A stretch of DNA of 64,000 nt from Thiobacillus sp. (GCF_030696885.1 NZ_JAUYRI010000017.1:161212-225211), one strand, 5' to 3'; shown: positions 40,546 to 54,410, numbered from the stretch's first letter. Numbers and translations: made by a program. The notes: a model not told the origin generated them from the sequence alone.

Positions 40546-41634
40546 TTGCACCTGAATATTAATCTGGACTGGCTCTCTGCCAAAGGCCTGCCCATCCTGG
40601 GGCTCGATATCAGCACGACCGCGGTCAAGTTGGTGGAGCTGTCCGATGCCGGCAAGGGCATGCTGAGGGTGGAGCGCTATGTGATTGAGCCCTTGCCCAA
40701 GGATGCGGTGACGGACGGCAACATCGCCAATCTCGATCAGGTCGCCGACACCTTGCGCACCGCATGGAAGAACATGAACACGCGGACCCGGAACGTGGCG
40801 CTGGCGCTGCCGTCCTCCGCGGTCATCACCAAAAAGATTCTGGCGCCGGCCAGCCTCAGCGGTCTCGACCTGGAAAACCAGGTGGAGGCCGAGGCCAATC
40901 AGGTTATTCCCTTCTCGCTCGACGAGGTGAATCTGGATTTTCAGGTGCTCGGCGAATCGCCTGCCAGCCCGGACGATGTGCAGATCCTGCTCGCCGCCGC
41001 ACGCAAGGAAAAGGTCGAGGACCGCGTCGCCGCCGTGGAGGCTGCCGGTCTCAAGGCGCTGGTGATGGATGTCGAATCCTTTGCGACCCAGACCGCCTAC
41101 GAGCAGATCGCGCATCAATTGCCCAACAGCGGCGACGGCCAGACCGTGGCGATCATCGATGTGGGCGCGCAAAACATGCACATCAACATCCTCAACAACA
41201 ACGAGTCGGTGTATCTGCGCGAACACGGCTTCGGCGGCAACCAGCTCAACAATGAAATTTCGCGCCGCTACGGCATGACCAGCGAAGAAGCCGAAAATGC
41301 CAAGCGCCGCGGCACGCTGCCGGAAAGCTATGACGTCGAGGTGCTGCAGCCCTACAGCGAGACGCTGGCGATGGAAATCGGCCGCGCCCTGCAACTGTTC
41401 ACCACATCCACCCAGTACCGCAAGGTCGATCAGATCCTGCTGGCCGGTGGGGGCGCCATGATTCCGGGTATCGATGAGGTCGTCGCCCAGCGCACCGGCA
41501 CGCCGGCCATGGTCGTCAACCCGTTTGCCAGCATGGCAGTCGGTTCCAAGATCCGGCCGCAGGCGTTGACCGCCGACGCGCCTTCCCTGTTTGTCGCCTG
41601 CGGCCTTGCCATGCGGAGGTTTGACCCCCAATGA
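40546..41634 (+). CDS. pilM: type IV pilus assembly protein PilM
   Basis: LGLDISTTAVKLVEL; EANQVIPF; IIDVG; LLAGGGA; ACGLAMR. Confidence 0.95.
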   Translation: MHLNINLDWLSAKGLPILGLDISTTAVKLVELSDAGKGMLRVERYVIEPLPKDAVTDGNIANLDQVADTLRTAWKNMNTRTRNVALALPSSAVITKKILAPASLSGLDLENQVEAEANQVIPFSLDEVNLDFQVLGESPASPDDVQILLAAARKEKVEDRVAAVEAAGLKALVMDVESFATQTAYEQIAHQLPNSGDGQTVAIIDVGAQNMHINILNNNESVYLREHGFGGNQLNNEISRRYGMTSEEAENAKRRGTLPESYDVEVLQPYSETLAMEIGRALQLFTTSTQYRKVDQILLAGGGAMIPGIDEVVAQRTGTPAMVVNPFASMAVGSKIRPQALTADAPSLFVACGLAMRRFDPQ

Positions 41635-42209
41635 TCCGCATTAACCTGCTCCCCCACCGTGAACTGGCACGCGCCGCGCGCCGGCGTCAGTTCAATATTC
41701 TGCTCGGCATTGCTGTCGTCGCCGGCGTGGTTGCTGTCGTGATCGGGCACAGCCTGATCGCGGCGCGTCAGTCCACGCAGGAGGCACGCAATGCCTTCCT
41801 CGAACAGGAAATTGCCCGCCTCGACAGCCAGATCGGCGAAATCAAGAAAATACGCGAGCAGACCCAGGCGCTGCTGGAACGCAAGCAGGTCGTCGAGACG
41901 CTGCAATCCAACCGGACCGAAGTCGTTCATCTGTTCGACCAGATGATCCGCCTGCTGCCCGAGGGTCTGTATCTCAAATCGTTCAAGCAGGACGGCCGGG
42001 TGATCACCCTCACTGGCTACACCCAGTCAAGCGCGCGCGTCTCCACACTGATGCGCAATCTGGAGAGTTCGCCCTGGTTTGAATCGGCCGGATTGGTCGA
42101 AATCAAGGCGGTCACGGTGAACAATCTGCGTGCCAACGAATTCGTGCTGACGGTCAGGCAGATCCAGCAGCAAACCGATGACGCGAACAAGGAAGGGGGC
42201 AAGGCATGA
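41631..42209 (+). CDS. pilN: type IV pilus assembly protein PilN
   Basis: MIRINLLPHRE; RVSTLMRNL. Confidence 0.95.
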   Translation: MIRINLLPHRELARAARRRQFNILLGIAVVAGVVAVVIGHSLIAARQSTQEARNAFLEQEIARLDSQIGEIKKIREQTQALLERKQVVETLQSNRTEVVHLFDQMIRLLPEGLYLKSFKQDGRVITLTGYTQSSARVSTLMRNLESSPWFESAGLVEIKAVTVNNLRANEFVLTVRQIQQQTDDANKEGGKA

Positions 42210-42826
42210 CCCTTGACGAACTCAACAAGCTGGATCTGAAAACGCTGGCCGACTGGCCGTTGCCGACCAAGCTGGTGGCGCTGGTGGTGCTTTTCGTGGC
42301 GATCGTGGCGGCAGGCTGGTGGTTTGACTGGCGCGGCGGCATGGAGACCCTGGACGCATCCAAGCAGAAGGAAACCGAGTTGCGCAGCGTATTTGCGACC
42401 AAGAAGAATCAGGCCGTCAATCTGGAAGCGTATACCAAGCAGCTGGCCGACATCGAGCAGGCCTTCGGCGCGCTGTTGAAGCAACTGCCCAACAAGCAGG
42501 AAATGGATGCGCTGATCACCGATGTCAACCAGGCCGGTCTGGGACGCGGCCTGCAGTTTGACCTGTTCAGGCCGGATGCCGAAGCCGTGACCGAGTTCTA
42601 TGCCGAGACGCCCATCACCGTTAAGGTTACCGGCGGTTATCACGACATCGCCGCCTTCGTCAGCGACGTCTCCAAGCTGTCGCGTATCGTGACTTTGCAG
42701 AATATCTCCCTGGCACCGGCCAAGGAGGGTGTGCTCAATATGGATGCGGTCGTCAAAACCTACCGTTACCTGGACGACGAAGAAGTCATCGCCCGCAAGC
42801 AGCAAACCAAGGAGCAGCCAAAATGA
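42206..42826 (+). CDS. pilO: type IV pilus assembly protein PilO
   Basis: LLKQLPNKQEMDALITDV; FYAETPI; GGYHDIAAF. Confidence 0.95.
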   Translation: MTLDELNKLDLKTLADWPLPTKLVALVVLFVAIVAAGWWFDWRGGMETLDASKQKETELRSVFATKKNQAVNLEAYTKQLADIEQAFGALLKQLPNKQEMDALITDVNQAGLGRGLQFDLFRPDAEAVTEFYAETPITVKVTGGYHDIAAFVSDVSKLSRIVTLQNISLAPAKEGVLNMDAVVKTYRYLDDEEVIARKQQTKEQPK

Positions 42827-43320
42827 AGCGACTGCCCACTTTAGTTCTCGTGCTGGGGCTGGCAGGTTGCGGCGGCGGCAACATGCAGGACCTGCAAACC
42901 TTCGTCGCCGAAACCGGCAAGGACATGCAAGGCAAGATCGAGCCGCTGCCGGAAGTCAAGGTGTACGAACCATTCAGCTATAACGCCTTTGACCTGCCCG
43001 ACCCGTTCAAGCCGAGAAAACTCTCGACCGGAGGCGGCGGCGGTATGCAGCCCGACTTCAATCGTCCGAAGGAGCCGCTGGAGTCTTTCTCCCTTGAGAC
43101 CTTGAAAATGGTCGGCATGCTGTCCAAACAAGGCGTGATTCATGCCGTGATCAAAACGCCGGACAACGCGATCTACCACGTTAAAAAGGGCAACTATGCA
43201 GGCCAGAACTTTGGCCTCATCACACAGATCACCGACAGCGAGGTGAGTCTGCGTGAGATTGTCCAGGATAGCGCCGGGGACTGGTCCGAGCGCACCAGCG
43301 CCCTGATTCTGCAGGAATGA
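42823..43320 (+). CDS. pilP: type IV pilus lipoprotein PilP
   Basis: Lipobox LAGC; DPF; KEPLESFSL; NYAGQNFG. Confidence 0.95.
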   Translation: MKRLPTLVLVLGLAGCGGGNMQDLQTFVAETGKDMQGKIEPLPEVKVYEPFSYNAFDLPDPFKPRKLSTGGGGGMQPDFNRPKEPLESFSLETLKMVGMLSKQGVIHAVIKTPDNAIYHVKKGNYAGQNFGLITQITDSEVSLREIVQDSAGDWSERTSALILQE

Positions 43321-43350
43321 TTCGTAGCACTGAATTTTAAAGAGGCTGAC

Positions 43351-45591
43351 ATGAACGCATTGCCCAAAATCACAGTTCGTAGCATTGCCCGGGACATGAC
43401 CCGTTACCTGTTTGGAGCCACGCTCCTGACCGGGCTGATGCTGTCTTATTCAGTGCGCGCCGCCGACCTGCCGCCGACCGCAAACACGGTGCAGCAGGTC
43501 GAGACCACGACGTTACCGGGCGGCAAGGTGGTCGTCCGCGTCACGCTCAAGAATGCGCTGACCGCCACCCCTGCCGGCTTCAGCGTCGGCAACCCGCCGC
43601 GCATCGCGCTGGACCTGCCGAACACCGGCAATGCACTGGGGCGCAATACGGTCGAATCCAACCTGGGCCCGCTGTCGAGCGTCAACGTGGTGCAGGCGGG
43701 CACACGCACGCGTCTGGTGCTGAACCTGAACAAGTCGGTCGAGTACGACACCACCCTTGACGGCAAACAATTGCTGATCGCACTGGGCGATGTCGGCGCA
43801 GGCACCGCGCCAGTCAATGCCAGCCCGCGCTTTGCCGAGGCAACGCCCGGCGCCGCACGCCACAGCATTCGCGATGTCGACTTCCGGCGCGGCGCGACCG
43901 GCGAGGGTCGCATCGTGACGACGCTTTCCGACGCGCAGGCGGGCATCAATATTCGCCAGCAGGCCAATGGCGTGGTCGTCGATTTCATCGGCACCGAGTT
44001 GCCCAGAGCCTTGCAGCGTCGCCTCGACGTGGCTGACTTCGGTACGCCGGTGCAGTTTATCGAGACCTACACGCTCGGCAACAACACCCGGATGGTGATC
44101 CAGCCCAAGGGCGGCTGGGAATACGCGGCCTATCAGGCGGACAACAGCTTTATTGTCGAAGTGAAGCAGAGCGATGACGCGCAGAAGAAAACCGCAGACG
44201 GCCGGGTGAAATATGTGGGCGAGAAACTCTCGCTCAATTTCCAGAACGTCGAGGTGCGCTCGGTGCTTCAGGTCATCGCCGATTTCACCGGCCTCAATAT
44301 TGTTGCAAGCGACACGGTGACCGGCAATCTGACTCTGCGCCTGAAAGACGTGCCATGGGATCAGGCACTCGATCTCATCATGCAAACCCGTGGGCTCGAC
44401 AAGCGCCAGAACGGCAATGTGGTCTGGATTGCGCCCAAGGACGAATTGCTGACTAAAGAGAAACTCGAGTTCGAGGCCAGGTCGGCCGTGGCGGATCTGG
44501 AGCCTTTGACGACGGACTATATTCAGCTCAATTACATGCGGGCGGATGAAGCAAAATCCATGTTGTATGGCGCCGCCGGGACGGCCCAGAACGCTGCGGG
44601 TGATGCAGTGAACTGTTCGGCTCAGGCGCAGGGTTTAAGTGGGACGGCAGCCCAGGCCTCGCAGCAGACGGGAGGGGATGCAGACCAGAAAGTCCTGACC
44701 AAACGGGGGCGGGCGACGTTTGAACTCAAAACGAATACGCTGATCGTTACCGATACCGCACGCAAGATTCAGGACGTTCGTGAACTCCTCGCGCGTCTCG
44801 ATGTGCCTGCACGTCAAGTCATGATCGAGGCACGGGTTGTGATTGCAGACAGCAACTGGAGTCGGGATCTGGGCGTTCGTCTTGGCACCCGACTGTTCAA
44901 GGATATAGGTCGGGAAAGAGTTGGGGTTGGCGGCACACTGAACGAATCCGCCAGTATTGCTGCGGGAGGGTCACCGACGGTCACGCCTCAAGTCAATCTG
45001 GGCGTTGCAAATGCGGTGGGACAGATTGCCTTGTCATTGCTGAACCCCAATAACGGCAACTTGCTAAGCCTGGAACTGACTGCGATGGAGGCTGATAACC
45101 GCGGCAAGATTTTGTCGAACCCGCGTGTGATGACGACGAATCAGAAGCCGGCAGTGATACTGAACGGTACGCAGATCCCCTTTGTGACGCCCGGATCTGC
45201 CAACGCACCTGCTACCGTGTCTTTCAAGGATGTGTTCCTTTGCCTGCTGGTTGATCCGCAAATCCTGAATAACGATTCGCTGATCATGACTGTGGAAGTG
45301 CAGAAGGACGCACAGGATGCAGGCGGGAGTGTGACGACAGGCGGCTTCACGGTTCCCGCAATTGCGACCCGCCGCATCAAAACCCAGGTTCGGGTGAACA
45401 ACGGTGAAACCCTGGTGTTGGGCGGCATCTTCGACCAGACCGAATTGAATAACGTCAATAAGGTGCCATTCCTCGGCGATGTGCCATTCCTCGGCAACCT
45501 GTTCAAGCAAACATCGAAGCAGGACCAGAAGACTGAACTGATCGTGTTCATTACGCCGCGCATCCTCGACGAGCGCCTGACGCTGCGCTGA
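43351..45591 (+). CDS. pilQ: type IV pilus secretin PilQ
   Basis: AMIN domains; SLNFQNVEVR; QVMIEARVV; VPFLGDVPFLGNLFK; ELIVFITPRI. Confidence 0.96.
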   Translation: MNALPKITVRSIARDMTRYLFGATLLTGLMLSYSVRAADLPPTANTVQQVETTTLPGGKVVVRVTLKNALTATPAGFSVGNPPRIALDLPNTGNALGRNTVESNLGPLSSVNVVQAGTRTRLVLNLNKSVEYDTTLDGKQLLIALGDVGAGTAPVNASPRFAEATPGAARHSIRDVDFRRGATGEGRIVTTLSDAQAGINIRQQANGVVVDFIGTELPRALQRRLDVADFGTPVQFIETYTLGNNTRMVIQPKGGWEYAAYQADNSFIVEVKQSDDAQKKTADGRVKYVGEKLSLNFQNVEVRSVLQVIADFTGLNIVASDTVTGNLTLRLKDVPWDQALDLIMQTRGLDKRQNGNVVWIAPKDELLTKEKLEFEARSAVADLEPLTTDYIQLNYMRADEAKSMLYGAAGTAQNAAGDAVNCSAQAQGLSGTAAQASQQTGGDADQKVLTKRGRATFELKTNTLIVTDTARKIQDVRELLARLDVPARQVMIEARVVIADSNWSRDLGVRLGTRLFKDIGRERVGVGGTLNESASIAAGGSPTVTPQVNLGVANAVGQIALSLLNPNNGNLLSLELTAMEADNRGKILSNPRVMTTNQKPAVILNGTQIPFVTPGSANAPATVSFKDVFLCLLVDPQILNNDSLIMTVEVQKDAQDAGGSVTTGGFTVPAIATRRIKTQVRVNNGETLVLGGIFDQTELNNVNKVPFLGDVPFLGNLFKQTSKQDQKTELIVFITPRILDERLTLR

Positions 45592-45605: not shown

Positions 45606-45636
45606 AAAAAGCGCGGGCGTGTCCCGCGCTTTTTTT
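45606..45636. terminator. intrinsic terminator after pilQ
   Basis: AAAAAGCGCGGG-N5-CCCGCGCTTTTTT. Confidence 0.85.
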
Positions 45637-45686
45637 CGTCTGCCGCTTGCCGCGCCCAGCCGGCTTCCCTCCATTAGAATGGCGCC

Positions 45687-46235
45687 ATGAGCAAGCGCGA
45701 CAATCTTTACCTCGTCGGCCTGATGGGAGCCGGCAAGACCACGGTGGGCCGGCTTCTGGCCCGGCACTATGGGTGCACGTTCCATGATTCGGACCATGAG
45801 ATCGAGGCACGCACCGGGGTCAAGATTCCGGTCATCTTCGAAATCGAGGGTGAAGCGGGATTCCGCCGCCGCGAGGAGACGGCGATTGCCGAGTTGACGG
45901 CGTTGTCCGGAATCGTGCTGGCCACCGGCGGGGGCGTGGTGTTGTCGGCGGCCAACCGCGAACGCCTGAAGCAAAGCGGCGTGGTCATTTATTTGCGCGG
46001 TACGCCCGAACACCTGTACGAGCGCACGCGGCATGACCGCAACCGTCCCTTGCTGCAAACGGACAACCCGCTCGACACCTTGCGCGAGCTGTATCGCCAG
46101 CGCGATCCGCTGTATCGCGAGATTGCCGACATTGTGGTCGACACCGGGCGGCAGAGCGTGTCCGGCATGACGCGCGTGCTGTGCGGCAAGCTGGATCTGT
46201 TGCGCAGCGGGCTGCCCGTGACTGGCACGGAGTGA
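45687..46235 (+). CDS. aroK: shikimate kinase
   Basis: GLMGAGKTTVGR; EGEAGFR; ATGGG; RPLL. Confidence 0.96.
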   Translation: MSKRDNLYLVGLMGAGKTTVGRLLARHYGCTFHDSDHEIEARTGVKIPVIFEIEGEAGFRRREETAIAELTALSGIVLATGGGVVLSAANRERLKQSGVVIYLRGTPEHLYERTRHDRNRPLLQTDNPLDTLRELYRQRDPLYREIADIVVDTGRQSVSGMTRVLCGKLDLLRSGLPVTGTE

Positions 46236-46237
46236 GC

Positions 46238-47488
46238 ATGCTGCGTCTGGCCTGCGCAGGGATGCTGTGCATGCTGGCCGACGGCGTCGCGGCGGCGGAA
46301 TATCGGGCGGGGGCGGACGATTATCGTGAGCACCTGCGTCGCCTGCAGCCGGGAGATCGGTTGCTGCTGGCGCCGGGCGATTATCTGCAGGGCTTGCCGC
46401 TGCACCATCTTTCCGGGCAGGCCGGCGAGCCGATCGTCATCGAAGCGGCTGACCCTGCCGCGCCGCCCCGCTTCATCGCGCGGCCGCGCGCCAATACCGT
46501 CAGCCTGATCAATGTGCGTCATCTGGTGGTGCGTCATCTGGTGCTCGATGGCCGCAACCTGCCGGTCGATGCGGTCAAGGCCGAAGGCCACAGCCGCTAT
46601 GCCGACTTCATCACGCTGGAACATCTGCATATCCATGACCATGCCGCGTCGCAGCAGAATGTGGGCATTTCCACCAAATGCCCGGCGTACGGCTGGGTGG
46701 TCCGCAACAACCGCATCGAGCGTGTCGGCACTGGCATGTATTTCGGCGATTCGGACGGCAGCGATCCCTTCGTCGGCGGCCTCATCGAGGGCAATCACGT
46801 CAGCGCGACGCTGGGCTACAACCTGCAGATCAAGCACCAGACCGGACGTACACCGGAATACGCGGGCCGCCACGACACGCTGATTCGCCACAACGTATTT
46901 TCCAAGCAGGACACCACGCCCGGCCCGCTCGCGCGTCCCAACGTCCTGCTCGGCCATGTCCCAGTTTCGGGCCCGGGCAGCGAGGATCGCTATCTGGTCT
47001 ACGGCAACCTGTTTCTGCACAATCCGAGCGAAGCGCTGCTGCAGGCAGAGGGGCGAGTGGCGGTGTACGACAATGTGTTCATCAACGGCGGCGGCGATGC
47101 GATTCGCATCCAGCCGCACAACGACGTGCCGCGCGAGATGATGATTTTCTCCAATACGGTGCTGGCATCGGGCACCGGCATCCAGGTGCGGCAGCGCGAG
47201 GGCACGGCGTATCGACAGCGTGTGGTCATGAATCTGATTGCCGCGGCCACGCCTATCCTGGGCGGTGAGGCGGCCCACAACCTTTCCCTGGCTTATCAGC
47301 ACGATCTGTTGCCTGTCGCCCCGGCCAGGCTGACGCAGCGCCTGTTGGCGCGCGGCCAGGCAGGGCCGCACGCCCCGGCGCCGCTGATGCACGAACTGGC
47401 AGCCTATCCCGATTGGCAACGCAGCTCGCGTCCCGGCGCACACATGACTTCCGCCTTGCTGCCCGCGCCTAACGCGGCAACGCCCTGA
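46238..47488 (+). CDS. secreted right-handed beta-helix (pectin lyase-like) protein
   Basis: Signal peptide; LQPGDRLLLAPGDY; repeated strands VRNNRI / IEGNHV / IRHNVF / VYGNLF / VYDNVF / IFSNTV. Confidence 0.75.
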   Translation: MLRLACAGMLCMLADGVAAAEYRAGADDYREHLRRLQPGDRLLLAPGDYLQGLPLHHLSGQAGEPIVIEAADPAAPPRFIARPRANTVSLINVRHLVVRHLVLDGRNLPVDAVKAEGHSRYADFITLEHLHIHDHAASQQNVGISTKCPAYGWVVRNNRIERVGTGMYFGDSDGSDPFVGGLIEGNHVSATLGYNLQIKHQTGRTPEYAGRHDTLIRHNVFSKQDTTPGPLARPNVLLGHVPVSGPGSEDRYLVYGNLFLHNPSEALLQAEGRVAVYDNVFINGGGDAIRIQPHNDVPREMMIFSNTVLASGTGIQVRQREGTAYRQRVVMNLIAAATPILGGEAAHNLSLAYQHDLLPVAPARLTQRLLARGQAGPHAPAPLMHELAAYPDWQRSSRPGAHMTSALLPAPNAATP

Positions 47489-49791
47489 TGAGTGCCAGCG
47501 ATACCGCCTCCCGCCGGCTGCTATGGTCGGCTGCGCTGGTTTATACCGCGTTCGTCGTGTACGGCAGCCTGGTGCCGCTGGAATACCGCTTCATCCCCTG
47601 GGATGAAGCGGTGGCGCGTTTCAGTGCGATTCCCTTTCTGCGACTGGGCATCGGTTCGCGCGCCGACTGGGTGGCCAACCTGCTGCTGTTCATCCCGCTG
47701 ACCTTCCTGTGGATGGGCGTCCTGAGCGCCGGTGCCGGCCGTGTGGGCACCGTGCTGATCACCCTGCTGCTGATTCCCGCGGCCGCTGCACTGAGTGTCG
47801 GCATCGAGTTCACCCAGCTGTTCTTTCCGCAGCGCACGGTGTCGCAAAACGACATCTTTGCCGAAACCCTGGGCGGCATCCTCGGGGTGCTGGTCTGGTG
47901 GGGGGCCGGCAGACGGTTTCTCGAATGGCTGCATTCCTGGCAGCAGTCACATGCCCGCGCCGCCCTTGCCGAGCGGCTGGCCTGGGTATATCTCGCCGGC
48001 GTGCTGGTCTACAACGTGCTACCGCTCGACCTCACCATCAGCCTGGTCGAGATTTTTCATCAGTGGCGCGACGGCAAGGTCAATTTGATTCCTTTCGGCA
48101 GCCTGCCGGACGATGCCGCCGAGGCGCTGTACGAAATCGCCACCGACGCGCTGATCTGGGTGCCGCTGGCCTTGATGTGGCGACTCGACGGAACGCACAG
48201 CGCCTGGCGCGTGTGGGGCATGACATTCGCTGCGGCCGCCTTGCTGGAGTTCCTGCAGTTGTTCGTCTATTCGCGGGTCAGCGACGTCACCGACCTGATC
48301 ACCGCCGCCGCCGGCGCAGCGCTGGGCACGTGGGTGGGGGGCCGCCTGGCCGCGCGCGTGGCCCCGACCAGCACGATGCCGGCGTGGTCGGCCTGGCTGC
48401 CGTTTGCGCTGGCAGCAGCCTGGGTGCTGCTGCTGGGCGTGGTGTTCTGGTTCCCTTTTGATTTTCAGACGGACGGTGCCTTCATCAAAAGCCGGCTCGA
48501 CTTCGTGCAGCGTGTGCCGTTCGAGGTGTATTACTTCGGCACGGAATTTCGTGCCATCACCGAAGTACTTCGCAAAACCCTCTTCTTCGCGCCACTGGGC
48601 GGGTTGCTGGCGTGGGGCGTGGCGCGCCAGCCGTGGCGCTGGCGCGGCCCGTTGTTCGCGCTGGCGATGCTGGTGCTGGCGGGACTGCCCGCCGTGATCG
48701 AAGGCGGGCAGTTGATGCTGCCGCACAAGATCGTCGACCTCACCGACTGGCTGCTGGCCTGGCTGGGTGGCCTGGCGGGCTATGCGGTGGCGCGGCATCT
48801 GCTGCGCGCACCGCGCCATGCACCGGTACGCTCCGTGGCCAAAGTGGAGAAGCATGAGAATCCGGTAGCCGACGTTGTATCCGCCGCACCCCTTTCACGC
48901 TGGCACCTGCCGCTGATGCTGGGCGGCCTGAGTCTGCTGTTCTGGATGGCGTCGCAGGCTGCGTTCGTGCCGTACAACGTGCGTGAACTGTTCCGGCCGG
49001 AGGCGGCCTGGCTGTCGGCGCTGCTGCTTGCGCTGGCGTGCATCTGGCTGGCCGTGTGGCCAGTGTGGCTGGCGCGCCGCCGGGTCTCCGGCCGTATCCG
49101 GCTGCTTCAGTTGCCGGTGGGGTTGTTGGCCTACGGTGCGCTGGCTTTTCTGCTGCTGCGCGCCGCCGTGCCGGAGGAAAGCCTGTTCGATCTGGTGGGC
49201 AGCCCGGTCCTCGACTGGCCGCGCTGGCTGGAACTCGGGCTGCGCTGGATCGCGCTGGCTGCCATCCCCGGCACGCTGCTGTACCTCGCCACGCAAACCG
49301 TCCGTCGCTGGCGCGGGCGGCGACTCGGTGCCTTGCATTTCTGGGCTGTGCTGCCGCCGCTGGCGCTGGCGTATTGGGGGGTGGTGGCGCAGGCTGCAAC
49401 CGACAACCTGACCGAGCTCATCGCCACGCCGCAACCACTGGCGTTTGCGCTGCTGTGTGCCGGCTTGTATGCGGTATTCGTTGCGGCCGCATTGCTGGCT
49501 TCGCCTGCCGGCACGGCGCAGCGCCTTGCACGATGGGCCGGCGTGGCGCTGTCGCTGCCGCTCACGGCCGTGTGTTTCCACTTCGGTCTGGCCGGCGAAA
49601 TCGACAAGTACGGCCAGCAGTTTTCGGCCCTGCAGTTCCTGCTGAGCAGCGATCGCCAGCATTACGCATCGCTGCCCGCCATCTGGCTGCGTTACGCCGT
49701 GCTGCATGGGCTTGTCATTGCAGCACTTGCCTCCCTACAATGGCCGCACTTCCGCGCCGCTCAACGACATTCTGCCCATGCCTCTCATTGA
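47488..49791 (+). CDS. large multi-pass membrane protein with two VanZ-like domains
   Basis: Two VanZ-like repeats (DWVANLLLFIP...IEFTQLFFPQR..SQND; DALIWVP...LEFLQLFVYSR.SDVTD), plus a third degenerate copy and a multi-TM C-terminus. Confidence 0.7.
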   Translation: MSASDTASRRLLWSAALVYTAFVVYGSLVPLEYRFIPWDEAVARFSAIPFLRLGIGSRADWVANLLLFIPLTFLWMGVLSAGAGRVGTVLITLLLIPAAAALSVGIEFTQLFFPQRTVSQNDIFAETLGGILGVLVWWGAGRRFLEWLHSWQQSHARAALAERLAWVYLAGVLVYNVLPLDLTISLVEIFHQWRDGKVNLIPFGSLPDDAAEALYEIATDALIWVPLALMWRLDGTHSAWRVWGMTFAAAALLEFLQLFVYSRVSDVTDLITAAAGAALGTWVGGRLAARVAPTSTMPAWSAWLPFALAAAWVLLLGVVFWFPFDFQTDGAFIKSRLDFVQRVPFEVYYFGTEFRAITEVLRKTLFFAPLGGLLAWGVARQPWRWRGPLFALAMLVLAGLPAVIEGGQLMLPHKIVDLTDWLLAWLGGLAGYAVARHLLRAPRHAPVRSVAKVEKHENPVADVVSAAPLSRWHLPLMLGGLSLLFWMASQAAFVPYNVRELFRPEAAWLSALLLALACIWLAVWPVWLARRRVSGRIRLLQLPVGLLAYGALAFLLLRAAVPEESLFDLVGSPVLDWPRWLELGLRWIALAAIPGTLLYLATQTVRRWRGRRLGALHFWAVLPPLALAYWGVVAQAATDNLTELIATPQPLAFALLCAGLYAVFVAAALLASPAGTAQRLARWAGVALSLPLTAVCFHFGLAGEIDKYGQQFSALQFLLSSDRQHYASLPAIWLRYAVLHGLVIAALASLQWPHFRAAQRHSAHASH

Positions 49792-50734
49792 TGTTTTCAA
49801 CGGCGACGCCGACGGTCTCTGCGCGCTGCACCAGCTGCGTCTGGCCGACCCCGCCGAGTCCGAACTGGTCACCGGACCCAAGCGCGACATTAGCCTGCTG
49901 AAACGGGTCAAAGCCCAGCCGGGCGACCGTGTCACCGTGCTGGATATCGCGCTGTCAAAGAATCGCGACGCGCTCGACCGGCTGCTCGCTGCCGGCGTGA
50001 AGGTGCGTTACTTCGACCATCACCAGCCGGGCGACATTCCGGCGCATCCGAATTTCGAAGCGCATATCGATACCGATGCCAACGTCTGCACCAGCCTGCT
50101 GGTGAACCGGCATCTACAGGACCGGCATCTGGCGTGGGCGGTCACTGCCGCGTTCGGCGACAACCTGGCCAATGCTGCGCGCGCCGCAGCGGTGCCTCTT
50201 GATTTGTCCGCTGACCAGCTGGCGCAATTGCAATCGCTCGGCGAATGCCTCAACTACAATGGCTATGGTGACACGCTCGATGATCTGTTTTTCGATCCGG
50301 CCGAGCTCTATCGCCTGATGCGCCCATTTGCCGATCCCTTCGCCTTCATCGCCGAGTCGCCGGCCTATCAAACGCTGAATGCCGGCTACCAGGCGGACAT
50401 GGCGCGTGCGGAGGCCGTCAGCGCGATGGACGCGCGTGCTTCCGGGCGCGTCTTCATGCTCCCGGCCGAGAAGTGGGCGCGGCGGATTTCCGGCGTGTTC
50501 GGCAATCAGCTGGCTGTCGAATCGCCCGCACAGGCCCATGCGGTGCTCACCGCAAAGCCGGAGGGCGGCTATGTTGTCAGCGTGCGTGCGCCGCTGAATG
50601 CCAAGTCCGGCGCCGATGAGCTGTGCAGCCAGTTCGACACCGGCGGCGGGCGCAAGGCCGCCGCCGGCATCAATCACCTGCCCGAATCCGGGCTTGGCCG
50701 ATTTATTGCTAGTTTCTACGACATTTATAAATAG
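49778..50734 (+). CDS. DHH/DHHA1-family phosphoesterase
   Basis: NGDADG; VLDI; YFDHH; C-terminal SVRAP...GGGRKAAAG. Confidence 0.82.
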   Translation: MPLIDVFNGDADGLCALHQLRLADPAESELVTGPKRDISLLKRVKAQPGDRVTVLDIALSKNRDALDRLLAAGVKVRYFDHHQPGDIPAHPNFEAHIDTDANVCTSLLVNRHLQDRHLAWAVTAAFGDNLANAARAAAVPLDLSADQLAQLQSLGECLNYNGYGDTLDDLFFDPAELYRLMRPFADPFAFIAESPAYQTLNAGYQADMARAEAVSAMDARASGRVFMLPAEKWARRISGVFGNQLAVESPAQAHAVLTAKPEGGYVVSVRAPLNAKSGADELCSQFDTGGGRKAAAGINHLPESGLGRFIASFYDIYK

Positions 50735-50760
50735 TCTTGCGGTCTTTCCCGGAGCTGAAT

Positions 50761-52389
50761 GTGAATCAACCCATCGCGCCCTACGGCGGCACCCTGGTCA
50801 GCCTGATCGATCCCGCGCGCGGTGATGCGCTCAGACAGGAAGCCCTGAGTTTGCCCTCGCTCGACCTCGACTGGCAGCAGCAGTGCGAACTCGAGATGCT
50901 GATGTCCGGCGCCTATTCGCCGCTGACCGGCTTCATGACACAAGCCCAGTGCGCGCGCGTTGACGCCGAGCGGCAACTCGACGACGGCACGTTCTGGCCC
51001 CTGCCGATTACGCTTTCCAGCCCGCAAAAAAACGCTGCCGAACTGAAGCCCGGTGACCGCGTTGCATTGCGTGACGGCGAGGGCTTCATGCTGGCCGTGC
51101 TCAGCGTCAGCGATGTCTGGCAGGACGGCGCGCGCTGGCACCTCGGCGGCGCGATCGAAGGCGCCGCGCTGCCGCCCCATCCCGATTTCGCCAGCCTGCG
51201 CGCCACGCCGGCCGAGTTGCGCGCGCTGTTCGCCCGCCGTGGCTGGGGCCGCGTGGTGGCCTGGCAGGCCCGCCAGCCAATGCATCGCGCGCAGTTCGAG
51301 TTTTGCCTGAAAAGCGCGATCGAAAATGAGGCCAACCTGCTGCTGCATCCGCAGGTGGGCGGGGATATCACCGATGCGCCTGCGTATTTCGGGCTGGTGC
51401 GCAGCTTCCTCGCAGTCCGCGACCGCTTTCCGTCTGCCAGCACCCAGTTGTCGCTGCTGCCGTCGCCGCCGCGCGAAGCCAGCGCACTTGCCCTGCTGCT
51501 GCGCGCCATCGTCGCGCGCAATTATGGCTGCAGCCTGCTGATTGCGGGCGGTGAACATCTGTCGGACGGCACCTGCCGCCGCGGTGAAGATCTCACCCAG
51601 ACCCATGCCGAGCTGCCCATTGCCGAGTGGGCCGACAGGATTGGCGTGCAGCTGATTGCCTACCCGCGCATGGTGTATGTGGAGGATCGCGCCGAACATC
51701 TGCCTGAATTCGATGCGCCTGCCGGCGCGCGTCTGCTGACACTCAGCGGCGAGGAATTCCATCGCCGCATGCGTGCCGGCCTGAAAATCCCCGACTGGTA
51801 CAGTTTCCCCGAAGTGCTCGCCGAGCTGCATCGGCAGAGTCCGCCGCGCGAACGCCAGGGCTTCACCGTGTTTTTTACCGGCCTGTCGGGCTCGGGCAAG
51901 TCGACGCTGGCGCGCGCGCTGACTGCGCGCTTGATGGAAATGGGCGGTCGCTCCGTCACCCTGCTCGACGGTGACATCGTGCGCCGCCACCTGTCATCCG
52001 AGCTCGGCTTCTCCAAGGCGCATCGCGACATCAACGTGCGGCGCATCGGTTTTGTCGCGTCCGAAATCACCAAGAATCGCGGCATTGCCATCTGCGCGCC
52101 GATCGCGCCGTATCGGCAGACGCGTCGTGACGTACGCGCGATGATCGAAGCCGTGGGCGGCTTTGTCGAAATTCATGTCGCCACGCCGATCGAAACCTGT
52201 GAGTCGCGCGATCGCAAGGGACTCTACGCCAAGGCGCGCGCCGGCCTGATCCCGGAATTCACCGGCGTATCCGATCCTTATGAAATACCCGAAAAGCCGG
52301 AGCTTGCGATTGACACCACCGACCTGGGCATCGACGAGGCCGTGCAGCAACTTCTGCTCAAACTCGAGCACGAGGGTTACCTGCGCTGA
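50761..52389 (+). CDS. cysC: two-domain adenylylsulfate kinase with degenerate ATP-sulfurylase domain
   Basis: The APSK domain is intact (FTGLSGSGKST, LLDGD, RDRKGLY, FTGVSDPYE). In the sulfurylase domain QTRN-x2-H-x2-H has become QARQPMHRAQ and GRDHAG has become GGEH. Confidence 0.92.
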   Translation: MNQPIAPYGGTLVSLIDPARGDALRQEALSLPSLDLDWQQQCELEMLMSGAYSPLTGFMTQAQCARVDAERQLDDGTFWPLPITLSSPQKNAAELKPGDRVALRDGEGFMLAVLSVSDVWQDGARWHLGGAIEGAALPPHPDFASLRATPAELRALFARRGWGRVVAWQARQPMHRAQFEFCLKSAIENEANLLLHPQVGGDITDAPAYFGLVRSFLAVRDRFPSASTQLSLLPSPPREASALALLLRAIVARNYGCSLLIAGGEHLSDGTCRRGEDLTQTHAELPIAEWADRIGVQLIAYPRMVYVEDRAEHLPEFDAPAGARLLTLSGEEFHRRMRAGLKIPDWYSFPEVLAELHRQSPPRERQGFTVFFTGLSGSGKSTLARALTARLMEMGGRSVTLLDGDIVRRHLSSELGFSKAHRDINVRRIGFVASEITKNRGIAICAPIAPYRQTRRDVRAMIEAVGGFVEIHVATPIETCESRDRKGLYAKARAGLIPEFTGVSDPYEIPEKPELAIDTTDLGIDEAVQQLLLKLEHEGYLR

Positions 52390-52406
52390 TTGCGTTTGGT
52401 GAACGT

Positions 52407-52435
52407 AAAAAAGCCGGCGTGAAGCCGGCTTTTTT
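52407..52435. terminator. bidirectional terminator between cysC and PEP-CTERM gene 2
   Basis: AAAAAAGCCGGC-N4-GCCGGCTTTTTT. Confidence 0.88.
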
Positions 52436-52455: not shown

Positions 52456-53271
52456 TCAGGCAGCCTTGCGGCGACGCGCGGCCGCCAAGCCGAGCAGACC
52501 CAGACCCATCAGCGCCAGCGAGGCCGGTTCGGGCACGCCGCCCACGGACCCCTGCGGCACGGAGGCAAAGCGCAGGGTGCCGCCAGCAACCAGGAACTCG
52601 CCGAAGCCGTCACCGAAGAAGGTCACGCTGCTGAAAAAGCCCGACGAGTCGATCGCGCCGATGAAGTTGGTGTAGCTGTTTGCCGCAGCGTAGCCAGGGT
52701 TGTCGTTGGCACTCAAGGCATTGGCCGGCAGGGTCGCTGCGCCGCCGTCGAAGGCGATCCACAGGCCGGAACCGGTGGCCGGGACGCCATAGGTGGACTG
52801 AATCGCCGCAGGACGCGTGCCGGTCATACAGCAGGTCGCCCAATCGCCAATTTCGAAGCCGAAAGCGTTCACAGGGTTGGAGAAGGTGAATGTCAGGCCG
52901 GAGTTGAAGCCGGGAATAATTTCTCCGCTAGACGTGCTCGGGCTGATGCCCCAGACCGAACCCGAAAGCGATTGGCCGCCCGAACTGTAGCCGCCGCTGG
53001 GGGTGGCGGTCGAGCCGTTGGGACGGGTGACCGTCACGGTGCCGTTAGCGGGGTCGCCGTTGCTGTCTAGGTACGAGTAGTTGTAAGCGTTTACGCCATT
53101 CACGACTTGTGCCGTGCCCACGGTGGATCCGGTGCCGGTGATGACGGCATCGAACGTGGAAATGTTGCCGAGGGCAAGGTTGTAAACGACCGGTGCGGCC
53201 GATGCGGACGCCAGCATGCCGAGGCTCAGCGCAGTACCCGCGACGGTGGCGAGAACATGTTTGTTGAACAT
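52456..53271 (-). CDS. PEP-CTERM sorting-domain protein 2
   Basis: Signal peptide; GFEIGDWATCC; C-terminal VPEPASLALMGLGLLGLAAARRRKAA. Confidence 0.93.
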   Translation of the reverse strand: MFNKHVLATVAGTALSLGMLASASAAPVVYNLALGNISTFDAVITGTGSTVGTAQVVNGVNAYNYSYLDSNGDPANGTVTVTRPNGSTATPSGGYSSGGQSLSGSVWGISPSTSSGEIIPGFNSGLTFTFSNPVNAFGFEIGDWATCCMTGTRPAAIQSTYGVPATGSGLWIAFDGGAATLPANALSANDNPGYAAANSYTNFIGAIDSSGFFSSVTFFGDGFGEFLVAGGTLRFASVPQGSVGGVPEPASLALMGLGLLGLAAARRRKAA

Positions 53272-53576: not shown

Positions 53577-54410
53577 TCAGGCCGACTTACGACGGCGCAT
53601 CGCGCCCAGGCCCATCAGGCCGATACCGAGCAGCGCCAGCGAGGCAGGCTCGGGAACACCGGCGACGCCGCCATCATCAATCGAACCTTGCGGAACCGAG
53701 GCGAAGCGCAGGGTGCCGCCGGCATAAAGCACTTCACCAAAACCGTCGCCAAAGAAGGTCACGCTGGAGAAGAAGCTTGACGAATCGATCGCACCGATAA
53801 AGTTGGTGAACTGACCATAGGCAGCAACCCCTGGGTTGTCATTTTGGTTCAGCGCATTGGCGGGCAAGGTGGCGGCGCCGCCGTCGAATGCGATCCACAG
53901 GCCAGAGCCAGTTGCGGGCACGCTGTAGGCGGACTGAACGGCAGCAGGCCGGGTGCCGCTGTAGCAGCAGGTCGCCCAGTCGCCGACTTCGAAGCCGAAC
54001 GCGTTGACCGGCGAGGAAAATGTGAACGTCAGGCCGGAGTTGTTGAAACCCGGGATGGCCGGGGTTCCGCCCAGCGCGGCAGACGACGGTCCGATGTCCC
54101 AGAGCGCGCCCGACACGGCACCGATACCCGAACCGTAACCCGAAACGGTCGGGTTGGCGGCGGCGCCGCTGATGGGACGGGTCACAGAAACCGTGGCCGG
54201 GTTGCCATCCTTGTCGATATAGTTGTAAACGCTTTGATTGCGAACGACCTGAGCGGTGACGACGGTGGACCCCGCAGCGGTGATCAGGTTGTCAAAGCCG
54301 GTGGTAATGCCGTTGAGTGCCGTGTTGATGATGAAGGGTGCGGCGACCGCGCTTCCCGCTGTAAACAGGGCCGAGGCGGCAAGCGCGCTGGCCAGTATGG
54401 TTTTATTCAT
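53577..54410 (-). CDS. PEP-CTERM sorting-domain protein 3 (paralog of protein 2)
   Basis: Signal peptide; GFEVGDWATCC; VPEPASLALLGIGLMGLGAMRRRKSA. Confidence 0.93.
   Translation of the reverse strand: MNKTILASALAASALFTAGSAVAAPFIINTALNGITTGFDNLITAAGSTVVTAQVVRNQSVYNYIDKDGNPATVSVTRPISGAAANPTVSGYGSGIGAVSGALWDIGPSSAALGGTPAIPGFNNSGLTFTFSSPVNAFGFEVGDWATCCYSGTRPAAVQSAYSVPATGSGLWIAFDGGAATLPANALNQNDNPGVAAYGQFTNFIGAIDSSSFFSSVTFFGDGFGEVLYAGGTLRFASVPQGSIDDGGVAGVPEPASLALLGIGLMGLGAMRRRKSA

Follow-up and report, generated by a model that had tools for sequence, protein, structure and literature searches.

A constant DHH phosphoesterase-APS kinase gene pair behind aroK in Thiobacillus sp., with a probable role in surface-glycan sulfation

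In many Proteobacteria, the shikimate kinase gene stands in the order pilMNOPQ-aroK-aroB. The two-domain adenosine 5'-phosphosulfate (APS) kinase of Thiobacillus denitrificans (Tbd_0210) is a hexamer of solved structure (PDB 3CR8; Gay, Segel and Fisher 2009), and PMC3734648 and bioRxiv 10.64898/2026.04.02.716029 cite it as having an inactive sulfurylase-like domain. MtPAPP of Methanothermococcus thermolithotrophicus, a phosphatase of 3'-phosphoadenosine 5'-phosphate (PAP), has 315-317 residues with the ligands D8, D10, D57, H76, H77, and D127, is encoded next to the ATP sulfurylase and APS kinase genes, and, with occurrences in 168 archaea, was put forward as an archaeal solution (Jespersen et al. 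2023, PMC10322725). Sulfation clusters dependent on 3'-phosphoadenosine 5'-phosphosulfate (PAPS) have been described for synechan (xss, Synechocystis, PMC8205485) and for the capsule of Vibrio sp. KMM 8419 (PMC11641403). Here, a window of 64,000 nt from Thiobacillus sp. (GCF_030696885.1, NZ_JAUYRI010000017.1:161212-225211) was analyzed with respect to five co-directional open reading frames (ORFs) at 45687-52389, which encode AroK, a right-handed beta-helix protein, a membrane protein with three VanZ repeats (VanZ3), a DHH/DHHA1 phosphoesterase, and an APS kinase. The locus is a composite of aroK, a constant DHH-APS kinase core, and a variable slot for the beta-helix and VanZ3 genes. The core pair probably feeds the sulfation of exopolysaccharide (EPS) or of PEP-CTERM-linked glycans, with the slot cassette as an accessory.

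The comparison covered 19 loci of the Thiobacillus clade: this genome (G000), the type strain of T. denitrificans, L060-L074, L090, and L117. The DHH gene and a two-domain APS kinase gene following it were adjacent in all 19, whatever the slot held, and aroK stood 5' of the DHH gene across the clade regardless of the slot content; it is a housekeeping syntenic passenger. The initial annotation had described the five genes and their spacings correctly, and the ORFs lie between two hairpin terminators (Table 1). Its reading of all five as one co-distributed unit did not hold, as aroK is a passenger and 7 of the 19 loci have lost the beta-helix/VanZ3 genes or carry them disrupted or exchanged for others.

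Along its full length, the APS kinase shared ~88% identity with the T. denitrificans protein of PDB 3CR8 (phmmer, residues 9-550 against 2-544, 1057 bits), and its GTG start at 50761 fits residue 2 of that structure. Judged by sequence, it is an ortholog of a biochemically characterized, already known enzyme. It had been annotated simply as an APS kinase; the APS_kinase domain is indeed present, but the protein is not a plain CysC, carrying PUA_2 and ATP-sulfurylase-like domains as well. The canonical sulfurylase motif is QxRNPxHxxH. In the sulfurylase-like domain here, it is degenerate (QARQPMHRAQ), and the query QARQPMHRAQFEF matches 3CR8 at the same positions. Loss of sulfurylase activity was demonstrated for the T. 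denitrificans enzyme only; by homology, the N-terminal half of the present protein would comprise a PUA-like and an inactive ATP-sulfurylase-like domain, and the C-terminal half an active APS kinase. A genome-wide search found no other APS kinase than the copy of this operon.

The DHH protein has, in an alignment of 16 homologs (47-77% identity), the invariant residues D10, D12, D56, D80-H81-H82, D128, and G289-G291/R292. Because the DxD, D56, DHH, D128, and GGGR motifs are invariant, it is considered an intact DHH/DHHA1 phosphoesterase. Its AlphaFold2 (AF2) model had a predicted local distance difference test (pLDDT) value of 94.8, and the best solved match was MtPAPP (PDB 8A8K; Foldseek E 9e-14, TM 0.75/0.76), aligned by VIA-align with a Z score of 26.4 and a root-mean-square deviation of 3.2 over 296 of 317 residues. 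NrnA-type enzymes were much poorer structural matches (Z ~16 vs 26). The relation to MtPAPP consists of structure and gene context, not of sequence, so the protein is said to work like MtPAPP rather than to belong to its family. The DHH proteins share with MtPAPP the fold and, by functional analogy, most likely a specificity for PAP, and would represent an uncharacterized, misannotated bacterial family working most like the archaeal enzyme. The proposal of the initial annotation that the locus supplies PAPS and removes PAP thus stands for the kinase through its characterized ortholog; for the DHH protein, the closest solved structure is that of a proven PAP phosphatase and the gene is recurrently linked to APS kinase genes, PAP activity being predicted. 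Relatives of the protein (homologs P0001-P0120) are named 'acetyltransferase' by NCBI and 'hypothetical' by JGI; the former name is wrong, since the DHH motifs are invariant and the fold is of the DHH type. The family comprised 1295 clusters at 50% identity. One 862-aa member, P0407, has APH-like phosphotransferase and AAA_33 P-loop kinase domains fused N-terminally to the DHH-like enzyme; it was considered as an APS kinase-DHH fusion of the Rosetta-stone type and rejected, the fused domains being APH-like and AAA_33 and not PF01583.

The association of the two genes was followed in 80 named loci fetched with the DHH family profile, 63 of them outside the Thiobacillus clade, and in a class sample of 300 genomes across the GTDB class (Gammaproteobacteria). 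The class-sample tallies include G039, G141, and G296, which are unpublished and are used for no single-locus claim. Neighbors were clustered on crude stop-to-stop ORFs, and one big antisense-artefact cluster was dropped. An APS kinase gene, of the one- or two-domain type, was directly beside the DHH gene in 20 of the 63 outside loci and in five arrangements, an adjacency far above chance. The kinase gene lay 3' of the DHH gene in thirteen of them (two-domain in nine, one-domain in four), 5' on the same strand in five, and divergent in two; a further arrangement, a two-domain kinase gene followed by the DHH gene, was seen in genome G068. Among the class-sample genomes, 50 (~17%) contained the DHH gene at 44-63% identity, with an APS kinase gene no more than 3 kb away in 11; APS kinases were encoded in 41 of the 50 DHH-positive and 143 of the 251 DHH-negative genomes. 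A phyletic complementarity of CysQ and DHH was tested and rejected, CysQ being missing in 21 of 50 DHH-positive and 79 of 250 DHH-negative genomes. A transporter of the SLC13/CitMHS type with TrkA_C adjoins the DHH gene or the DHH-APS kinase pair in four unrelated loci (Table 1) and is a candidate sulfate importer.

The fate of PAPS was examined genome-wide. No member of the PAPS_reduct family (CysH/CysD) was found in the genome, and therefore PAPS should serve only as a sulfuryl donor. The best genome match to the CysQ model (TIGR01331, cut-off 228.8 bits) had an E-value of 6.3e-30, far below the cut-off and typical of SuhB-like paralogs. A true dissimilatory Sat is encoded at C20 next to one AprA; another AprA is also present in the genome. 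The search for Sulfotransfer_1 and Sulfotransfer_3 domains gave matches in two places only, C17:360-380 kb and C19:64-84 kb, with at least four sulfotransferase genes in total. On C17, two Sulfotransfer_3 genes (367k and 379k) stand among genes for Wzy_C/DUF5935, MBOAT, Asn synthase, GT2, GT4, and a GT2-sulfatase fusion, with XrtA at C17:351160, 16 kb 5' of the sulfotransferase locus. The C19 locus contains a second exosortase (C19:64441), a PEP-CTERM gene, Bac_transf, FadL-like, PPIase, Poly_export, and Wzz genes alongside TPR-sulfotransferases. Since there is no CysH, CysD, or CysQ, Sat and AprA are dissimilatory, and both exosortase loci hold sulfotransferases, PAPS production for EPS or glycan sulfation is the best reading of these data.

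Two features of the exosortase loci deserve a description of their own. At C19:74386-80673 (L146:10386-16673, minus strand), three tandem TPR proteins of 685-700 aa are encoded beside the PEP-CTERM gene and the second exosortase; one has Sulfotransfer_3 and Sulfotransfer_1 domains, one TPR repeats alone, and one a Sulfotransfer_3 domain. Their domains and position make them candidate sulfotransferases of the PEP-CTERM system that would act on proteins or glycans. Between the two C17 sulfotransferase genes, at C17:372567-375686 (L147:12567-15686, minus strand), lies a gene for a 1039-aa protein with an N-terminal GT2 and a C-terminal sulfatase/SGSH-like domain. Sulfate-adding and sulfate-removing (or phosphoethanolamine-transferase-like) chemistry within one XrtA EPS cluster is unusual.

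Taken together, the locus is best explained, with moderate confidence, as three units of different age joined at one site. The shikimate kinase gene is an ordinary one that would have stayed behind pilQ as aroB moved elsewhere. The two-domain kinase would turn APS into PAPS; in this sulfur oxidizer, dissimilatory sulfite oxidation (AprBA/Sat) is expected to proceed via APS, and the dead sulfurylase-like domain would be no handicap because APS would come from that source. The DHH/DHHA1 enzyme would split PAP, the toxic by-product of every sulfotransferase reaction, into AMP and phosphate, as done by CysQ in Escherichia coli and by MtPAPP in the methanogen. The sole recognizable users of PAPS would be the sulfotransferases of the two exosortase/PEP-CTERM exopolysaccharide loci, and as PAPS would act only as a sulfuryl donor and its users occur only there, the pair most likely feeds the sulfation of EPS or PEP-CTERM glycans. 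The beta-helix and VanZ3 proteins would be accessory envelope-polysaccharide functions, probably processing the same polymer in the periplasm. The earlier idea of an operon for a sulfated EPS is supported at the genome level by the missing PAPS/APS reductase and the confinement of the sulfotransferases to exosortase loci; it does not hold as an operon-level module, which contains no sulfotransferase. Similarly, the proposed tie to the PEP-CTERM/EPS system is supported by the positions of all predicted sulfotransferases and not by the neighboring PEP-CTERM genes, which are convergent and behind a terminator.

Several observations weigh against this explanation. No match to Sulfotransfer_1 or Sulfotransfer_3 was found in the window, and no sulfotransferase gene is in or beside the operon. 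Archaeal nucleases of the RecJ type, which have additional domains, nearly tie with 8A8K as structural matches of the DHH model (Z 24-25), so the fold by itself does not set the substrate. No sequence match between the DHH family and MtPAPP was detected: neither phmmer nor a 16-sequence profile, run against PDB sequences, retrieved 8A8K at E up to 10. A sequence bridge was also looked for and dropped, as phmmer and the profile missed 8A8K and the representative search covered the best 150 matches. In six good-quality genomes, the DHH gene is not accompanied by an APS kinase, and CysQ is also encoded in 29 of 49 DHH-positive genomes, so the DHH protein is not simply a CysQ substitute. Many of the linked loci are from related Betaproteobacteria and hence not independent. 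Genome G149 encodes a long VanZ protein and two DHH copies without an APS kinase or Sulfotransfer_3, and the relatives G302 and G303, which lack the VanZ cassette, still hold sulfotransferases; the capacity for sulfation therefore does not depend on the cassette. Because CoA-dependent reactions likewise release PAP, DHH genes without an APS kinase or next to CysQ would still fit a PAP phosphatase.

The content of the slot differed among the 19 clade loci. The order pilQ-aroK-beta-helix-VanZ3-DHH-APS kinase recurred in 11 others, so that it is not due to chance; together with this genome, 12 loci held a beta-helix gene and a VanZ3-type gene, one of which (L067) encodes a 1289-aa VanZ variant. 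In the type strain of T. denitrificans (ATCC 25259), VanZ3 is alone, the order being aroK, Tbd_0208 (VanZ), a 319-aa gene, the APS kinase gene, and a convergent PEP-CTERM gene. The other six loci have a beta-helix gene with a VanZ3 remnant (L066), a frameshifted beta-helix gene and no VanZ3 (L090), a VanZ3 remnant alone (L072), an empty slot (L074), a divergent 370-aa VanZ gene (L071), and a divergent VanZ-heparinase II/III fusion (L117). Of VanZ3, only a 3' remnant is left in L066, L072, and L090, and nothing in L074. In L090 (Thiobacillus sp. SMAG_U14110; 4727-5438 and 5674-7601), the beta-helix gene is both frameshifted and truncated, and the VanZ3 body has given way to a minus-strand ORF of 439 aa that matches Big_2 and pilus-N weakly, the VanZ3 3' end being retained. 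This 3' end contains the promoter-like site TTGTCA-N18-TACAAT, which was kept in 9 of 9 Thiobacillus loci holding that stretch, including three VanZ3-deletion variants in which just the last 70-90 codons remain. The site consists of codons ending in A or T, the G+C content at third codon positions of the genome being 0.73-0.87. From its sequence and conservation, it is probably a dedicated promoter of the DHH-APS kinase pair.

Table 1. Features of the aroK-DHH-APS kinase locus (window positions) and SLC13/CitMHS transporter genes next to DHH genes in other loci.
Feature	Position	Strand	Remarks
pilMNOPQ	40546-45591	+	precedes aroK
Hairpin terminator	45608-45636	+	3' of pilQ, separates aroK from the pilMNOPQ operon; aaaaagcgcgggcgtgtcccgcgcttttttt; terminator scan
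aroK, shikimate kinase	45687-46235	+	Pfam SKI 3e-52; NCBIfam AroK 2e-55
Right-handed beta-helix protein, secreted (signal-like N-terminus)	46238-47488	+	gap +2 nt; weak Pfam Beta_helix, NosD, Pect-lyase_RHGA_epim
VanZ3, 767-aa membrane protein with 3 VanZ repeats	47488-49791	+	spacing -1 nt (overlap); Pfam VanZ 2.5e-40, 3 stretches
Promoter-like TTGTCA-N18-TACAAT	49712-49741	+	within VanZ3 3' end; 10/12 consensus positions; 37 nt 5' of DHH start
DHH/DHHA1 phosphoesterase, 318 aa, cytoplasmic, predicted PAP phosphatase	49778-50734	+	spacing -14 nt (overlap with VanZ3); weak Pfam DHH
Two-domain APS kinase, 542-550 aa	50761-52389	+	GTG start; gap +26 nt; PUA_2 + ATP-sulfurylase + APS_kinase
Bidirectional hairpin terminator	52406-52435	.	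common to the operon and the convergent PEP-CTERM gene; GC-rich hairpin, then T-run; aaaaaagccggcgtgaagccggctttttt
Two paralogous PEP-CTERM surface-protein genes	52456-53271 and 53577-54410	-	Pfam PEP-CTERM 8e-8 and 8e-7
SLC13/CitMHS transporter	L054:12325-14127		weak Na_sulph_symp match
SLC13/CitMHS transporter	L108:7129-8883		
SLC13/CitMHS transporter	L022:2388-3941		
SLC13/CitMHS transporter	L039:2433-3935		

The beta-helix protein scored 26.8 bits against Pfam Beta_helix (cut-off 25.9), its NosD and Pect-lyase_RHGA_epim matches being below the cut-offs, and its N-terminus is signal-like (MLRLACAGMLCMLADGVAAA). Its neighbors in the atlas search were pectate-lyase and chondroitinase-B-type clusters, and no match was found among PDB sequences; the weak generic matches make it a candidate pectate-lyase/chondroitinase B/epimerase-like protein. 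VanZ3 matched PF04892 in three stretches (138.4 bits, cut-off 30.1). Its repeats span approximately residues 1-445 and are 27% identical to one another (BLASTP, E 4e-4 to 6e-3); a conserved C-terminal domain with 8-9 transmembrane helices follows, and 19 hydrophobic peaks were counted in the protein. Invariant polar motifs occur in the repeats and in the C-terminal domain, and the T. denitrificans ortholog Tbd_0208 is 67% identical. The AF2 model of VanZ3 was poor (pLDDT 66, predicted TM score 0.41), Foldseek against PDB returned nothing below E 0.16, and an atlas search with the C-terminal domain retrieved its own kind alone, with scores of 0.76 or below.

Relatives of these genes occur in several other contexts. 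In G129, a 51%-identical beta-helix homolog is located directly 5' of a 1112-aa VanZ protein gene, among epimerase, protease, and Asn-synthase genes, and the VanZ3-like genes of G011, G271, and G149 neighbor AT3(-SGNH) acyltransferase, Asn synthase, and FemAB-like GNAT genes. A 1152-aa VanZ protein fused to a DUF4962/Hepar_II_III_C domain (HepB model, 5e-51) is encoded in G068 just 3' of the APS kinase-DHH genes and 5' of GT2 and GT4 genes, with an SLC13-type transporter gene divergent from the kinase gene; a VanZ-heparinase II/III fusion adjoins the pair in Thiobacillus L117, too. A VanZ gene of 350-380 aa adjoined the DHH gene in 12 of the 63 outside loci, being divergent and directly 5' in 10 of the 12. 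As the VanZ-DHH(-APS kinase) association was seen in these 12 loci and in G068, it is wider than Thiobacillus. Between the DHH gene and the fusion gene of G068 (L054:8945-9214, plus strand), an 89-aa acyl-carrier-protein-like gene was noted on the opposite strand; formation of the holo-acyl carrier protein likewise frees PAP. Sulfotransferase genes beside the long VanZ genes of G068, G129, G011, and G271 were looked for and rejected, the nearest being 25-70 kb away, as was a hidden sulfotransferase in the G068 locus, a 329-aa ORF without a Pfam match and unlike the sulfotransferases of the present genome. A search of the available literature on Tbd_0207-0210, VanZ with sulfotransferase, and VanZ with heparinase turned up nothing relevant.

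From these matches and neighborhoods, the VanZ and beta-helix genes appear to be of the envelope-polysaccharide type. The initial annotation had assigned them as a membrane component and a periplasmic lyase/epimerase-like enzyme of glycan sulfation; the assignment is supported by relatives fused to heparinase II/III or standing beside beta-helix, AT3, and Asn synthase genes, and the link to sulfation is suggestive and unproven. A role of the cassette in sulfation may be put forward tentatively. The alternative, somewhat unlikely in our view, is that the cassette is unrelated to sulfation and sits in a permissive slot prone to recombination, beside a housekeeping PAPS/PAP pair, acting on an unsulfated envelope polymer or in wall or antibiotic tolerance like Gram-positive VanZ. 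The loss, breakage, or replacement of the cassette in seven clade loci next to a persisting pair that seemingly has its own promoter is in line with this, as are the sulfotransferases retained in cassette-less genomes, the VanZ3-like genes of G011, G271, and G129 that are not beside DHH or APS kinase genes, and the long VanZ of G149 without any APS kinase. However, VanZ stands beside DHH in three forms (co-directional VanZ3 with the 14-nt overlap, a divergent 370-aa gene, and a heparinase fusion, downstream or divergent), the association recurs outside the clade, the fused domain is kin to lyases of sulfated glycosaminoglycans, and APS kinase was encoded in 14 of 17 class-sample genomes with VanZ matches vs 61% overall.

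A further alternative is that the DHH-APS kinase pair does not serve sulfation at all: the kinase would buffer or regulate the APS pool, the DHH protein would be a general pAp/nanoRNA hydrolase, and no sulfated surface polymer would exist. Such a hydrolase would suit the DHH genes found without an APS kinase or together with CysQ, the release of pAp in CoA-dependent phosphopantetheinylation, the otherwise very variable DHH context (pyrD, ccm genes, transporters), the fold common to RecJ and NrnA nucleases, and G301, a metagenome-assembled genome of completeness not established, which holds the pair and has no Sulfotransfer_3 match. Nevertheless, at least four sulfotransferase genes need PAPS in a genome with a single APS kinase, the NrnA-type structural match is poor, and the adjacency to APS kinase genes is far above chance, which makes this alternative improbable. 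It is very improbable that the VanZ protein itself is a membrane PAPS-dependent sulfotransferase or a PAPS/PAP exchanger feeding periplasmic beta-helix/heparinase-like modification: the recurrent VanZ-DHH(-APS kinase) link in operons none of which has a sulfotransferase, the overlap of the VanZ3 stop with the DHH start, and the invariant polar motifs would agree with it, but VanZ3 has no likeness to any sulfotransferase or nucleotide-sugar/PAPS transporter and no fold match to its poor model, VanZ-less relatives retain sulfotransferases, G149 lacks an APS kinase, and the classical cytoplasmic sulfotransferases present suffice. A broader version, in which VanZ-family proteins serve the PAPS-dependent modification of envelope glycans as dedicated partners in the membrane and couple the PAPS/PAP pair to a periplasmic lyase/epimerase-like domain by using PAPS or moving PAPS or a sulfated intermediate across the membrane, is speculative and hardly probable.

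The surroundings of the locus are as follows. The genome, which is 99.8% complete, has a single aroB match (PF01761, DHQ_synthase) at C17:391348, outside the window, which bears out the earlier remark that aroB is absent from it; no aroB match was found in the 80 related loci. An aroB gene was suspected between aroK and DHH in L091-L093 and L138; no aroB match was obtained there, and the gap is occupied by a divergent 350-aa VanZ gene. A TAGAAT -10-like hexamer (window 45670-45689) ends 6 nt 5' of the aroK ATG, and no Shine-Dalgarno sequence was seen between the pilQ terminator and aroK; the leader of the aroK mRNA may be very short or missing. The two PEP-CTERM genes are convergent neighbors behind the terminator and outside the operon, and a PEP-CTERM gene at the same position was also found in T. 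denitrificans, L060, and L073.

If pair-driven sulfation is correct, the crystallized, functionally puzzling APS kinase of Thiobacillus acquires a concrete physiological role, in which dissimilatory APS is converted to PAPS for the sulfotransferases of exosortase loci, and sulfated EPS or PEP-CTERM glycans are predicted in environmentally important sulfur oxidizers. The compact, widespread DHH family, annotated so far as 'acetyltransferase' or 'hypothetical', is a likely bacterial counterpart of the archaeal MtPAPP. The VanZ-DHH(-APS kinase) linkage and the VanZ-heparinase fusions offer a testable clue to VanZ function; were VanZ a partner of PAPS-dependent modification, this would be the first functional handle on the family and would point to sulfated EPS in the exosortase/PEP-CTERM systems of sulfur-oxidizing Betaproteobacteria. 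New here is the combination of the known PAPS/PAP pair logic with a VanZ/lyase-like cassette and with a route from dissimilatory APS through PAPS to exosortase sulfotransferases.

Compared with the described systems, the locus resembles pilMNOPQ-aroK-aroB in that aroK follows pilMNOPQ; here, a terminator splits pilQ from aroK, aroB lies 184 kb away from aroK, and in the Thiobacillus clade, VanZ-type and DHH-APS kinase genes stand 3' of aroK instead. The APS kinase has the same domain order as Tbd_0210 (PUA-like, ATP-sulfurylase-like, APS kinase) and the same genomic site, 3' of the Tbd_0208/0209 orthologs; the T. denitrificans type strain is a different species and has no beta-helix gene between aroK and VanZ3. 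The DHH protein is close to MtPAPP in size (318 vs 317 aa), in its two-domain DHH/DHHA1 architecture without extra domains, in the metal-ligand pattern DxD, D, DHH, D, and in being encoded beside an APS kinase gene. It differs in the identity of only 12%, in the GGGR motif of its family instead of the usual GGGH of DHHA1, and in its occurrence in bacteria (Beta/Gammaproteobacteria and Zetaproteobacteria) rather than archaea; moreover, PAPS of the methanogen enters assimilatory reduction, whereas the present genome has no PAPS reductase. With the CysQ and NrnA PAP phosphatases paired with cysC, it shares the proposed hydrolysis of PAP to AMP and phosphate and the placing beside an APS kinase gene, although CysQ has an inositol-monophosphatase fold, unlike DHH, and none exceeds the model cut-off in this genome. 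As in the xss cluster (PMC8205485) and that of strain KMM 8419 (PMC11641403), PAPS-forming enzymes and sulfotransferases would act for an exported polysaccharide; in the present genome, 140-170 kb separate the sulfotransferase genes from those for PAPS, or they lie on another contig, APS would come from dissimilatory sulfur oxidation, and the sulfated polymer is predicted from the genes.

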